Notes under the pieces: generated by a model | What the model was told of the DNA's origin: nothing | Database searches by the model: none | The model's input: only the letters and a program-made list of their open reading frames with translations | Shown: one piece after another, positions 1-7,040 of the stretch | Layout: each line of letters opens with the position of its first letter | Position numbering within the stretch: position 1 is the first letter of the stretch | Program-made: the position numbers and the translations under genes | Assembly: GCF_024298765.1 (NCBI RefSeq) | Contig: NZ_CP101210.1 | DNA: 64,000 nt | Direction: 5' to 3' (one strand) | Origin: Escherichia coli | GTDB lineage: Bacteria; Pseudomonadota; Gammaproteobacteria; Enterobacterales; Enterobacteriaceae

Positions 1-182
1 CCCCATTCAAGAACAGCAAGCAGCATTGAGAACTTGGGAATCCAGTCTCTCTTCCACCTGCTGATCTGCGACTTATCAACTCCCACAGCTTCCGCTGTCT
101 TCTCAGTTCCAAGCATTGCGATTTTGTTAAGCAACGCACTCTCGATTCGTAGTGCCTCGTTGCGTTTGTTTGCACGAACCAT
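1..182 (-). CDS. cII: Lambda CII transcriptional activator, N-terminal part only (gene runs off window start)
   Basis: Reverse-strand translation from ATG at 182..180 gives MVRANKRNEALRIESALLNKIAMLGTEKTAEAVGVDKSQISRWKRDWIPKFSMLLAVLEW. Confidence 0.9.
   Translation of the reverse strand, partial: MVRANKRNEALRIESALLNKIAMLGTEKTAEAVGVDKSQISRWKRDWIPKFSMLLAVLEW
160..173 (+). promoter_or_regulatory. pRE region: CII-binding direct repeat TTGC-N6-TTGC overlapping cII start
   Basis: ttgcgtttgtttgc on the strand antisense to cII; matches the known CII recognition motif. Confidence 0.6.
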
Positions 183-261
183 ATGTAAGTATTTCCTTAG
201 ATAACAATTGATTGAATGTATGCAAATAAATGCATACACCATAGGTGTGGTTTAATTGGAT

Positions 262-293
262 GCCCTTTTTCAGGGCGGGGATGGGTAAGAGCG
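262..293 (-). promoter_or_regulatory. nutR (boxA CGCTCTTAC, boxB GCCCTGAAAAAGGGC) between cro and cII
   Basis: Reverse complement of 262..293 reads cgctcttacccatccccgccctgaaaaagggc. Confidence 0.75.
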
Positions 294-300
294 GGGTTAT

Positions 301-510
<210 letters not shown>

Positions 511-527
511 TTAGTACATGCAACTAT

Positions 528-591
528 TATCACCGCCAGAGGTAAAATAGTCAACACGCACGGTGTTAGATATTTATCCCTTGCGGTGATA
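528..591. promoter_or_regulatory. Right operator OR1 (528..544), OR2 (551..567), OR3 (575..591) with divergent pR and pRM
   Basis: Three 17-bp sites tatcaccgccagaggta, caacacgcacggtgtta, tatcccttgcggtgata between cro and cI. Confidence 0.88.
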
Positions 592-598
592 GATTTAA

Positions 599-1315
<717 letters not shown>

Positions 1316-1442
1316 TAGGAAGTAAGTTTTATGTTGACGGCACAGTCAACTTGGCATAGATTAATTAAACCAAGCCCAGCCCCGTTCGCAGACAATTGTT
1401 AATATCTGCATAACGGCTCTGGGCTATTTTTTTGGGACTCTT

Positions 1443-2300
1443 ATGAAGAAAGCAGCAATTTTAATTGATGCGGGTTTTTTCATGCAGCGTGTTCATGCTA
1501 CGCATCGTAAACACTTCGCCGAGCATGAACTGACTGCGCAATGCATAATGAAAGTAATATGGTCAATGGTTCTTTCCCATCTTAATGGAAAACGTCAATC
1601 ACAAGAACGTAGGGAACCGCTTGAGCTTTATAGAATTTACTTCTATGACTGTCCACCACTCGACATTCAAACACGCCTTCCACTTCCTGAGCCTGGCAAT
1701 AAGACGCCTGGTCGCAAGAATTTCAAACTCGAAAAATCATATATTCTGAGAACGGAGCTGCATGAAGAGTTAAGAAAAACTCGAAAAACAGCCTTAAGAT
1801 TAGGGAATCTTGTTGATAATAAGCGATGGCAACTAACTACATTCTCCCTTGATGCTCTGATGAAAGGAACGAAAAAATGGGATGAACTGACAAATGATGA
1901 TTTTTACTATGACATCAAACAAAAACAAGTTGATATCAAGCTAGGGATGGATATCACGACTTTAGCTTATGAAAAACTTGTTGATGTAATTGTCCTTGTT
2001 GCTGGGGACTCAGACTTTGTGCCTGCCGCCAAACACGCCAGAATTAAAGGTATTGATTTTATTCTTGATCCACTAAGACAGAATGTTACCCCATCACTGT
2101 CAGAGCACATTGATGGAGTTCAGTCATACAGCTTGATATCAGGACTTGCCGATGCTTTACATGTTGAGCCAGACCCGGCACCTGACTGGTGGGAAGATCG
2201 AAAAAAAGGCAAGCCTAGGGGAAAAAACAATAGCGGTAAACGCAGGTATGGAAACACTCAAGCTGAGTCTGCAAAGAAACATCAAAGAAATAAACGATAA
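1443..2300 (+). CDS. NYN/LabA-like PIN-fold predicted nuclease with Lys/Arg-rich C-terminal tail; occupies the rexA-rexB position
   Basis: 285-aa ORF with ATG start; motifs AAILIDAGFF, VDIKLGMD and VLVAGDSDFVPAAKHARIKGIDFILD resemble NYN acidic motifs; does not match my recollection of RexA; AT-rich. Confidence 0.75.
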   Translation: MKKAAILIDAGFFMQRVHATHRKHFAEHELTAQCIMKVIWSMVLSHLNGKRQSQERREPLELYRIYFYDCPPLDIQTRLPLPEPGNKTPGRKNFKLEKSYILRTELHEELRKTRKTALRLGNLVDNKRWQLTTFSLDALMKGTKKWDELTNDDFYYDIKQKQVDIKLGMDITTLAYEKLVDVIVLVAGDSDFVPAAKHARIKGIDFILDPLRQNVTPSLSEHIDGVQSYSLISGLADALHVEPDPAPDWWEDRKKGKPRGKNNSGKRRYGNTQAESAKKHQRNKR

Positions 2301-2309
2301 TCCCATCAA

Positions 2310-2336
2310 CCCGGCCACCGAGCCGGGTTTTCTTTG
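2310..2336 (+). terminator. Rho-independent terminator after the NYN gene
   Basis: cccggc-caccga-gccggg hairpin followed by ttttctttg. Confidence 0.6.
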
Positions 2337-2491
2337 CCTCACGATCGCCCCACCTAAAAACACATAACCAATTGTATTTATTTTAAAATTAATAGGTGCA
2401 ACTCACTAAACAACGCAATTCTGATCTCTCGATCACCTCCCAAGCCACACAACCCTGCAAAAAATAAATCTATATAAAAAACATACAGATA

Positions 2492-2552
2492 ACCATCTGC
2501 GGTGATAAATTATCTCTGGCGGTGTTGACACAAATACCACTAGCGGTGATAC
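2492..2552 (+). promoter_or_regulatory. Left operator OL3 (2492..2508), OL2 (2511..2527), OL1 (2535..2551) with pL (-35 ttgaca 2525..2530, -10 gatact 2547..2552)
   Basis: aaccatctgcggtgata, tatctctggcggtgttg, taccactagcggtgata upstream of N. Confidence 0.88.
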
Positions 2553-2592
2553 TAAACACACCAGCAGGACGCACTAACCCACATGAAGGTGA

Positions 2593-2623
2593 TGCTCTTA
2601 AAAATTAAGCCCTGAAGAAGGGC
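2593..2623 (+). promoter_or_regulatory. nutL (boxA tgctcttaa, boxB gccctgaagaagggc)
   Basis: gatgctcttaaaaattaagccctgaagaagggc between pL and N. Confidence 0.8.
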
Positions 2624-2781
2624 AGCATTCAAAGCAGAAGGCTTTGGGGTGTGTGATACGAAACGAAACATTGGCCGGAAGTGCGAATCCGGATTAGCTG
2701 CAAATGAGCCAATCGTGGGGTGTTTTCGTTCAGGACTACGACTCCCACACACCACCAAAGCTAACTGACAAGAGAATCCAG

Positions 2782-3679
<898 letters not shown>

Positions 3680-3802
3680 TTAAAAGACAGGCATACTAAT
3701 AAACACTGCACTGTGTATTTATTCCAACGAGTGAATACACGGAGCAATGTCGCTCGTAACTAAACAGGAGCCGACTTGTTCTGATTATTGGAAATCTTCT
3801 TT

Positions 3803-3829
3803 GCCCTCCAGTGTGAGGGCGATTTTTTA
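3803..3829 (+). terminator. Rho-independent terminator upstream of ea10 (tL1-like)
   Basis: gccctc-cagtgt-gagggc hairpin followed by gattttttat. Confidence 0.5.
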
Positions 3830-3848
3830 TCTATGAGGATATGAATAG

Positions 3849-4217
3849 GTGTCAAACATCAAAAAATACATCATTGATTACGACTGGAAAGCATCAATAG
3901 AAATTGAAATCGACCATGACGTAATGACAGAGGAAAAACTTCACCAGATTAATAATTTCTGGTCAGACTCTGAATACCGACTCAATAAACACGGCTCTGT
4001 ATTAAATGCTGTATTAATCATGCTGGCGCAACATGCTCTGCTTATAGCAATTTCAAGCGACTTAAATGCATATGGTGTTGTGTGTGAGTTCGACTGGAAT
4101 GATGGAAATGGTCAGGAAGGATGGCCTCCAATGGATGGTAGCGAAGGAATAAGAATTACCGATATCGATACATCAGGAATATTTGATTCAGATGATATGG
4201 CTATCAAGGCCGCCTGA
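3849..4217 (+). CDS. ea10: Ea10-like protein (122 aa)
   Basis: GTG-initiated ORF MSNIKKYIIDYDWKASIEIEIDHDVMTEEKLHQINNFWSD...; position collinear with lambda ea10. Confidence 0.8.
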   Translation: MSNIKKYIIDYDWKASIEIEIDHDVMTEEKLHQINNFWSDSEYRLNKHGSVLNAVLIMLAQHALLIAISSDLNAYGVVCEFDWNDGNGQEGWPPMDGSEGIRITDIDTSGIFDSDDMAIKAA

Positions 4218-6405: not shown

Positions 6406-6584
6406 CGCATCCTCACGATAATATCCGGGTAGGCGCGATCACTTTCGTCTACTCCATTACAAAGCGAGGCTGGGTATTTCCCGGCCTTTCTGTTATCAGA
6501 AATCCCCTGAAAGCACAGCGGCTGGCTGAGGAGATAAATAATAAACGGGGAGCTGTATGCACAAAGCATCTCCCGTTGAGTTAA
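6396..6584 (+). CDS. Lambda orf60a-like small protein
   Basis: [58 protein letters not shown]... immediately after exo. Confidence 0.6.
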
Positions 6585-6748
6585 GAACGAGTATCGAGAT
6601 GGCACATAGCCTCGCTCAAATTGGAGTCAGGTTTGTGCCAATACCAGTAGAAACAGACGAAGAATTTCATACGTTAGCCGCATCCCTTTCACAAAAGCTG
6701 GAAATGATGGTGGCGAAAGCAGAAGCAGATGAGAGAGACCAGGTATGA
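6557..6748 (+). CDS. Lambda orf63-like small protein
   Basis: 63-aa [66 protein letters not shown]. Confidence 0.6.
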   Translation: MHKASPVELRTSIEMAHSLAQIGVRFVPIPVETDEEFHTLAASLSQKLEMMVAKAEADERDQV

Positions 6749-6824
6749 CAACCACTGAATGCATTTTTCTGGCAGCGGGCTTCATATTCTGTGTGCTTAT
6801 GCTTGCCGACATGGGGCTTGTTCA

Positions 6825-7040
6825 ATGACACCTCAGCAAGAAAACGCCCTTCGCAGCATTGCCCGTCAGGCTAATTCTGAAATCAAAAAAGCCAGACAGC
6901 AGTTTCCGGATAAAAACGTCGATGACATTTGCCGTAGCGTACTAAAGAAGCACCGCGAAACGGTAACGCTGATGGGATTCACACCGACTCATTTAAGCCT
7001 GGCGATCGGCATGTTGAACGGCGTCTTTAAGGAACGGTGA
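6825..7040 (+). CDS. Lambda orf61-like small protein
   Basis: ORF from ATG 6825 MTPQQENALRSIARQANSEIKKARQQFPDKNVDDICRSVLKKHRETVTLMGF...; start choice uncertain. Confidence 0.5.
   Translation: MTPQQENALRSIARQANSEIKKARQQFPDKNVDDICRSVLKKHRETVTLMGFTPTHLSLAIGMLNGVFKER

Follow-up and report, generated by a model that had tools for sequence, protein, structure and literature searches.

A conserved RNA hairpin with a predicted promoter precedes NYN nuclease genes in a lambda-like Escherichia coli prophage and in distant bacteria

The immunity region and the interval between cI and the NYN gene

The DNA analysed here (the window), a stretch of 64,000 nucleotides (nt) from the Escherichia coli contig NZ_CP101210.1 (assembly GCF_024298765.1), starts in the immunity region of a lambda-like prophage, which is reversed in orientation relative to the usual lambda map. 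The repressor gene cI, annotated as encoding a LexA-family repressor in the identical phages ev099 and 2B8, is separated by a gap of 127 nt from a downstream gene for a NYN-domain nuclease, and this gap contains the leader that is the subject of this work: a palindrome, a predicted promoter, a three-stem RNA hairpin and a T-run (Table 1). Because homology to the 3' end of lambda rexB begins at about position 2308, the NYN gene together with its leader fills the slot that is occupied by rexAB in lambda. The t_imm-like terminator found at this point has an 8-bp stem with 6 GC pairs and a TTTTCTTT tail, and its fold amounts to -14.5 kcal/mol.

The NYN protein matches Pfam family PF01936 (E = 6.8e-9) and phrog_5783. 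Its AlphaFold2 model has a predicted local distance difference test score (pLDDT) of 86, and the best PDB match of this model, the sole match of the fold search, is the NYN domain of MARF1; a sequence-profile search of solved structures with the NYN family gave no match. The acidic residues D9, D69, D164, D170, D189 and D191 are invariant. Based on the Pfam assignment, the structural match to MARF1 and the invariant acidic residues, the protein is classified as a putative PIN-like RNase.

Table 1. Features of the immunity region and of the NYN leader (window coordinates)
Feature	Position	Strand	Details and source
cro	301-501	-	
lambda-type cI repressor gene	602-1315	+	stop codon TGA at 1313-1315; open reading frame list
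mobile NYN cassette	1316-2307	+	leader, NYN gene and sequence up to the t_imm-like terminator
perfect palindrome GTTGAC-GGCACA-GTCAAC	1333-1350	none	left half is the -35 hexamer
predicted sigma-70 promoter	1334-1362	+	TTGACG 1334-1339, 17-nt spacer, TAGATT 1357-1362; consensus scan
three-stem RNA hairpin, 53 nt	1373-1425	+	fold, covariation, covariance model
stem 1	1373-1379/1419-1425	+	AGCCCAG/CTGGGCT, 5 GC pairs
stem 2	1382-1386/1412-1416	+	CCGTT/AACGG
stem 3	1388-1392/1405-1409	+	GCAGA/TCTGC
12-nt loop	1393-1404	+	CAATTGTTAATA
A + T7 tract	1426-1433	+	directly 3' of stem 1
weak Shine-Dalgarno-like GGGA	1434-1437	+	within GGGACTCTT (1434-1442); NYN start codon ATG at 1443
NYN-domain (PIN-like) nuclease gene	1443-2300	+	285 amino acids
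t_imm-like terminator of cassette/immunity operon	2308-2336	+	terminator scan
oL/pL	~2525-2553		N gene beyond

Structure and predicted promoter of the leader

An earlier inspection of the sequence (the original prediction) had described outer arms around a 30-nt spacer, followed by a T-run abutting the start codon. Both arms are present; however, they enclose 39 nt rather than 30, and this interior is itself structured, as it forms two further stems and the 12-nt loop. The T-run is likewise present and ends 9 nt before the ATG instead of abutting it. When the folding check proposed along with these observations was run, the hairpin with its tail (1370-1433) reached -25 kcal/mol (z = -5.1), and none of 200 shuffled sequences was as good. 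The anatomy corresponds to that of an intrinsic terminator in that, on the transcribed strand, the basal stem is GC-rich and leads into a U-tract. A T-run 3' of the hairpin was found in essentially all relatives, and GGGA or GGA is kept at the same position in the relatives of group A (see below).

The structure was established by covariation in an alignment of 23 distinct hairpins, which fall into five groups, A to E (Escherichia/Pantoea/Brenneria/Proteus/Photorhabdus, Edwardsiella/Ewingella, Pasteurellaceae-type, one other, and Pseudomonas). Under the three-stem model 93.7% of the cells are paired, and compensatory changes on both sides were observed for 13 of the 18 pairs; the observed covariation was reached by 0 of 500 shuffles, and pairing dropped to at most 44% when the partners were slid by 1-3 columns. 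G.U combinations occupy 20 cells of the alignment and A.C combinations none; therefore it is the plus strand, the one coding for NYN, that folds. A covariance model built from groups A-E (R1) has one strong match in the window, at 1370-1435 with 82.7 bits. Searches of genomes with R1 yielded 12 strong matches, all 12 of them directly upstream of NYN homologues.

The unpaired bases appear to be under strong purifying selection. In comparisons of the window with its group-A relatives, the four-fold-type third codon positions of the NYN gene are only 24-41% identical, which corresponds to saturation, whereas over this set of relatives the hairpin shows identity at 18 or 19 of its 19 unpaired bases and only compensatory substitutions in its outer stem. 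Loop positions A3, U7, U8 and A9 do not vary among groups A, B, C and E, which span 46-59% protein identity and yet keep the three-stem shape; the loop of group D has 9 nt. Since a plain terminator needs none of this, constraint on the unpaired bases implies a sequence-specific reader, and the hairpin is probably recognised in addition to any role in termination, perhaps by NYN itself, which is the simplest candidate because it is the sole protein that always travels with the hairpin RNA.

The -35-like hexamer TTGACG and the -10 candidate TAGATT 17 nt downstream, both part of the original prediction, were confirmed, with 9 of 12 matches to the consensus. A consensus scan of positions 1-3200 listed only three promoter-like sites: this one, pL, and the sites of the pR/pRM region. 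Comparison lends further weight to an internal promoter. In every group of relatives the hairpin is preceded, at a distance of 7-15 nt, by a -35 element TTGAC(G/A/T), a spacer of 16-18 nt and a -10 element TAnnnT, and the spacer sequence varies between the groups while the hexamers, their spacing and the distance to the hairpin are kept. Examples are TTGACA-16-TATAAT in locus L087 and TTGACA-17-GATAAT in L081, which come near to the consensus, and TTGACG-17-CAAAAT in L098 (L numbers denote the loci compared). Transcription is predicted to start at about 1369-1372 in the window, and 1-15 nt before the hairpin across the groups.

The palindrome noted at 1333-1350 is present and perfect. Taken alone, its 6-bp arms do not stand out significantly from chance (z about -3; matched by 3 of 200 shuffled sequences). 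Among 59 unique homologous upstream regions, however, a perfect GTCAA follows TTGAC at a distance of 2-12 nt in 12, compared with 0.59 expected for permuted 5-mers, and 22 more have it with one mismatch. The TTGAC...GTCAA inverted repeat, with a spacer of 6-11 nt, recurs in relatives down to 41% protein identity. No convincing -10 element was found for a leftward promoter from the inverted TTGAC or for a second upstream promoter.

Two further sequence patterns were observed around the promoter. An inverted repeat CTTGG...CCAAG (1350-1354 with 1370-1374) brackets the -10 element and the predicted start, and is kept in several, although not all, group-A relatives. Additional hexamers resembling TTGAC(A/T) or TTTACA lie some 16-36 bp upstream of the TTGACGG promoter in L004, L010, L014, L019 and L028, and also in L031, L032, L069 and L070, relatives whose leader is not cut off by cI; in their place the window has the end of cI. 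These hexamers could represent a second promoter or repeated binding sites.

Linkage to NYN genes, mobility and distribution

Positions 1316-2382 recur as a block, with 99-100% identity, in the phages ev099, 2B8 and E212, in some 50 phages converting to Shiga toxin 2a (Stx2a), and in many E. coli genomes. In the Stx2a phages the cassette follows a different repressor gene and a DUF3024 gene (PADLOC candidate PDC-S43), and homology to the window starts 17 nt before the stop codon of lambda-type cI; as it thus starts inside the 3' end of cI, the Stx2a cassette carries a remnant of its former cI neighbour. NYN relatives at 78-87% identity lie behind other types of cI or in chromosomal contexts, and all of them keep the leader. 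The view of the leader as a cI-proximal feature was therefore abandoned, since it accompanies NYN behind other repressors, the DUF3024 gene and chromosomal genes; the suggestion that it controls the cargo independently of pRM gains from the same comparison, since NYN has this leader even where it is not preceded by a lambda-type cI. With its own predicted promoter and terminator, its position in the slot that holds rexAB in lambda and its occurrence in several phage backbones, the cassette qualifies as a phage moron. The leader (1333-1442) thus appears, as we judge with fair though not full assurance, to be the built-in expression control of a horizontally mobile NYN cassette rather than a feature of cI.

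The linkage is also seen when the hairpin itself is used as the query. Exact searches with the invariant interior found NYN directly downstream in 9 of 9 metagenome contigs and in 27 of 28 viral contigs, and for other hairpin groups the corresponding counts were 15/15, 13-14/15 and 3/3. Degraded copies of the cassette were observed as well. In phage Stx2_EH0505 (L001, 2965-3127 and ~6490-6900) the cassette follows the genes for a 235-amino-acid repressor and the DUF3024 protein, and a second, internally deleted leader with a NYN remnant is found about 3.5 kb downstream, beyond an insertion sequence (IS) transposase; the -10 element of this second copy is altered to TAGGTT. Many O157:H7 genomes have a lambda-type cI followed by a 100% identical leader and NYN only in frameshifted or truncated form, for example in a defective prophage beside tRNA-Thr/proA (L002, 2287-3529).

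Orphan hairpins without NYN are rare, about 4 in roughly 130 places, and were found in phages. In IMGVR_UViG_3300011920_000033 (L029, 3297-3699) an identical group-A hairpin follows a pR'-like promoter at a distance of about 290 nt. It comes after an open reading frame (ORF) of 207 amino acids in the position of the Q gene (no Pfam match), and tRNA-Arg(tct) and the lysis genes are its immediate downstream neighbours. The prophage of E. coli E3 (L210) has an ordinary terminator at the same site, with the flanks CAAGCC...GGCTTTTTATTTG common to both and the hairpin taking the place of the terminator's interior; because of this plain terminator with shared flanks, the NYN-type hairpin of L029 is seen to stand in for tR', which agrees with a terminator function. 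In IMGVR_UViG_2837411671_000005 (L230, 765-1320), a Pasteurellaceae-type phage, a group-C hairpin occurs about 85 nt after TTGACA-16-TATTAT and just downstream of the gene for the Q antiterminator (PF06530), that is, in the tR' position, with no NYN downstream. Orphans at tR' are thus present in two independent lineages, each with the local type of hairpin. The virulent Chaseviridae phages BSBP01 (L038, 2503-2566) and vB_Shi_2KOFFS (L040, 3-63) have a group-A hairpin with a one-base deletion and a T5 run; it replaces the tRNA-Arg gene of phiEcoM-GJ1 (L200), with a small ORF and the spanin genes just downstream. As far as sequence goes, the orphan copies permit a reading of the hairpin as an antitoxin or a decoy.

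Beyond the groups used for the alignment, NYN homologues down to about 40% identity have a long hairpin and a T-run just before the start codon, and many also have a promoter-like element before the hairpin. Such leaders were found in Gamma-, Beta- and Alphaproteobacteria, Bacteroidota, Acidobacteriota, Verrucomicrobiota and others. By one uniform criterion applied to both sets, a long hairpin with a T-run is present in 100 of 121 unique upstream regions of NYN homologues, compared with 54 of 400 control ORFs from the same loci. Rhodanobacter, Dyella and related loci (L138-L163, ~44% identity) have only short GC-rich hairpins upstream, and no long hairpin with a T-run.

Most of the distant homologues share a second design (type 2), composed of an outer stem, CAGUA(A/C)G, an inner stem-loop, GCCGA(A/C)CC and the closing strand of the outer stem. 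These hairpins are not reached by model R1, for which their best scores are 14-21 bits. Compensatory changes were observed in 6 of the 8 pairs of the outer stem, which is the only part recovered by MAFFT/RNAalifold, the inner stems being taken from folds of single sequences. The type-2 hairpins of L157, L166, L171, L176, L179, L180, L185, L188, L197 and L199 have in common an internal loop whose 5' strand carries AGUA and whose 3' strand carries GAA; it may correspond to the sarcin-ricin/loop-E (bulged-G) motif, a frequent protein-binding module.

A widely conserved, sequence-constrained RNA family was not foreseen by the original prediction. Rfam 15 gave no match (E <= 1) at the element in positions 1-4000 of the window, in 12 viral loci or in 12 genomic loci, and literature searches that paired NYN with prophages, defence, RNA antitoxins or rexAB returned no account of it. 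The small RNA svsR (PMC12803456) was considered and rejected as a description of this hairpin, as it lies inside the 3' end of a cI gene and is described as co293-like. A study of anti-sRNAs by Hfq-CRAC in enterohaemorrhagic E. coli (PMC4104026), with its supplement, has no entry for Sp1 or ECs0272-0276, the corresponding O157 prophage. Taken together, the NYN leaders form a widespread and apparently undescribed family of promoter/terminator-hairpin RNAs. In two Pseudomonas loci (L126, 5009-5208; L180, 2566-2762) Rfam identified, on the minus strand and a few kb from NYN, the C4 antisense RNA with its a1/b1 targets (P1/P7-type immunity), which indicates a prophage context.

Proposed mechanism, alternatives and relation to known systems

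We consider it probable that the promoter gives rise to a terminated hairpin RNA, that NYN is expressed by read-through, and that the hairpin is specifically recognised. The sigma-70 promoter TTGACG-17-TAGATT would initiate transcription at about 1369-1372, and folding of the nascent RNA would immediately give the hairpin (1373-1425), which with the U7 behind it would act as an intrinsic terminator. Most transcripts from this promoter would terminate near 1433 and yield a hairpin RNA of some 60-65 nt, and transcripts from pRM or pRE that pass through cI would stop at the same hairpin. The NYN frame would be carried only by read-through RNA, which would keep the nuclease low and uncoupled from cI. 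The NYN RNase may read the hairpin, either as feedback on its own leader or by being bound by the short RNA.

Several observations weigh against this interpretation. The promoter and the terminator are both predictions from sequence and comparison. With its 53 nt, 12-nt loop and internal loops, the hairpin is not compact, and a simple terminator scan (loop of 3-8 nt) did not list it. Regions that lack the long hairpin and T-run exist among the 121 examined, mostly in one Rhodanobacter/Dyella clade. The conserved unpaired bases could be due to a host factor or to constraint on the DNA itself, and recombinational spread of the module could partly explain the identical interiors in group A. Finally, the palindrome, which may be an operator or a small hairpin, is left unexplained.

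Among the alternatives, the one that deserves most attention, although we regard it as possible rather than probable, is a repeat-less toxin-antitoxin (TA) or abortive-infection pair of a type III-like kind, in which the terminated hairpin RNA would neutralise NYN in trans, shut-off of host transcription by a phage or destruction of the RNA would free the nuclease, and the hairpins of phages would act as decoys. It accords with the ToxIN-type order of promoter, structured RNA, terminator and endoribonuclease gene, with the strong constraint on the unpaired hairpin bases, with the location in the rexAB slot of lambdoid prophages and beside PADLOC PDC-S43 in Stx2a phages, with weak PADLOC matches of the protein to the HEC-09 and NYN models, and with the presence of orphan hairpins at highly transcribed phage positions (tR' after Q twice, and the tRNA-Arg site of Chaseviridae). 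However, tandem repeats are lacking, the nuclease does not have the ToxN/AbiQ fold, no literature on such a pair was found, and stability would be expected of a hairpin that is fully paired, bears a 5'-triphosphate and ends in a terminator, which misfits a labile antitoxin; the orphans, moreover, are rare and equally explicable as borrowed terminators. It is only tentatively, then, that the hairpin RNA and NYN may be proposed as an undescribed repeat-less type III-like pair or an RNA-gated abortive-infection module that occurs in many bacterial phyla, with phages having repeatedly captured the cognate hairpin as a decoy and put it at tR', where pR' would transcribe it constitutively, or, in the virulent Chaseviridae, at the site of a tRNA gene. 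Less credible still is ordinary insulation, by which the hairpin would be the terminator of the upstream unit (cI), the promoter would drive NYN, recent spread would account for the conserved sequence, and no reader would exist. The terminator-like anatomy and the substitution for a plain terminator at tR' would fit, as would the facts that morons typically carry their own promoter and terminator and that a second terminator follows NYN. Nevertheless, an insulator would be expected to precede the promoter, whereas here the promoter lies upstream of the terminator and the transcripts of the cassette itself must cross it. The hairpin also precedes NYN in chromosomal and other non-cI contexts, the three-stem shape and loop bases persist at the protein divergence of groups A, B, C and E given above, and the unpaired bases are identical where synonymous sites are saturated.

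The remaining alternatives have little in their favour. The loop might act at the DNA level as a promoter, with TGTTAATAT (1396-1404) as an extended -10 element and the NYN mRNA starting in the 3' arm and so escaping the terminator, whose sole effect would be to block transcription from upstream. TG-n-TAATAT is indeed present in the window, and -10-like hexamers (GATAAT, TAATAT, TATTAT, TACTAT) occur in the loops of groups B and C; however, there is no -35 element, and both the conserved upstream promoter and the compensatory changes in all three stems would be left unexplained. As the loops of groups D and E and of the type-2 hairpins lack a -10-like hexamer while the structure is kept, this was rejected as a general explanation and is very improbable for the window as well. 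We give hardly any credence to a classical attenuator or riboswitch, or to a minus-strand element, be it an antisense RNA or a terminator of leftward transcripts. The attenuator, which had been among the options of the original prediction, would suit a hairpin that directly precedes the start codon, but in all groups 7-15 nt separate the end of the -10 element from the hairpin; a start 1-15 nt before the hairpin leaves no room for an antiterminator, which makes a classical competing fold unlikely, as the transcript lacks leading sequence that could form an alternative. Nor does any Rfam family match in the three scans. In isolation, the minus strand of 1316-1445 does fold more stably (-42.8 kcal/mol, z = -4.6), but this is outweighed by the count of G.U against A.C cells and by the T-run, which is found on the plus strand only; a consensus scan found no minus-strand promoter, and the minus-strand reading was rejected.

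Given the strong covariation and the lack of a match in Rfam 15, the leader is a candidate RNA family for curation, with members from Enterobacterales to Bacteroidota and Acidobacteriota. Judging from its arrangement, cargo behind cI in a lambda-type prophage may be insulated and equipped with its own promoter-terminator leader, instead of being simply co-transcribed from pRM, which bears on how the expression of accessory and defence genes is read in Stx and other lambdoid prophages. If the hairpin is indeed the partner of the nuclease, be it as feedback site, antitoxin or decoy target, it would represent a new RNA-protein logic in phage defence and a simple example of RNA capture by phages.

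The known systems closest in layout are the type III TA loci (ToxIN, CptIN, TenpIN), which share with the NYN leader the order and orientation of promoter, structured RNA, terminator and endoribonuclease gene, the promoter and terminator being predicted in our case. In type III systems the terminator sets a high ratio of RNA to protein, and these systems are found on mobile elements and in connection with phage defence, as the NYN cassette is. Their antitoxins, however, are tandem repeats of 34-45 nt processed by the toxin, while the NYN leader has a single 53-nt hairpin and no tandem or direct repeats were found in 1250-1600; their toxins are ToxN/AbiQ (or CptN/TenpN), in contrast to the NYN/PIN-like fold. 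Because tandem repeats are missing and the nuclease is not ToxN-like, we do not file the NYN locus as a type III system. Phages reportedly capture antitoxin-like RNA, as in the work on PhiTE and ToxI. Conserved hairpins recognised by the nuclease whose own transcript carries them are found in the E. coli rnc and rne leaders, and Regnase-1 mRNA likewise has such a stem-loop. The NYN gene resembles these autoregulated RNases in having a conserved stem-loop in its own transcript, its recognition by NYN being putative, and differs from them in that the hairpin is also terminator-like and is directly preceded by a dedicated promoter.

The proposed logic of expression is that of the pR'-tR' leader RNAs of lambdoid phages (lambda 6S; StxS, PMC7547250), in which a constitutive promoter is followed by a close intrinsic terminator. 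There the short RNA is the main product and the downstream genes are expressed by read-through, as we suggest for NYN. Unlike in pR'-tR', no Q protein, qut site or nut site is associated with the element in the window, the hairpin begins almost at the predicted +1, and the leader serves a single nuclease gene rather than a late operon.

The immunity operon of lambda, cI-rexA-rexB-t_imm, occupies the same slot, from the cI stop codon to a t_imm-like terminator, with homology to the end of rexB retained. In lambda, rexAB is co-transcribed with cI from pRM. By analogy, both slots may hold accessory, probably protective cargo that is expressed in the lysogen, yet the prophage studied here has a distinct predicted promoter and a terminator-like hairpin interposed between cI and a cargo that is unrelated to RexAB. 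Like morons, the NYN cassette is self-contained, has its own predicted promoter (1334-1362) and terminator (2308-2336), and has been inserted between genes that in relatives lie side by side or enclose different content; what sets it apart from the moron concept is the additional terminator between promoter and gene, in the form of a conserved and sequence-constrained RNA.

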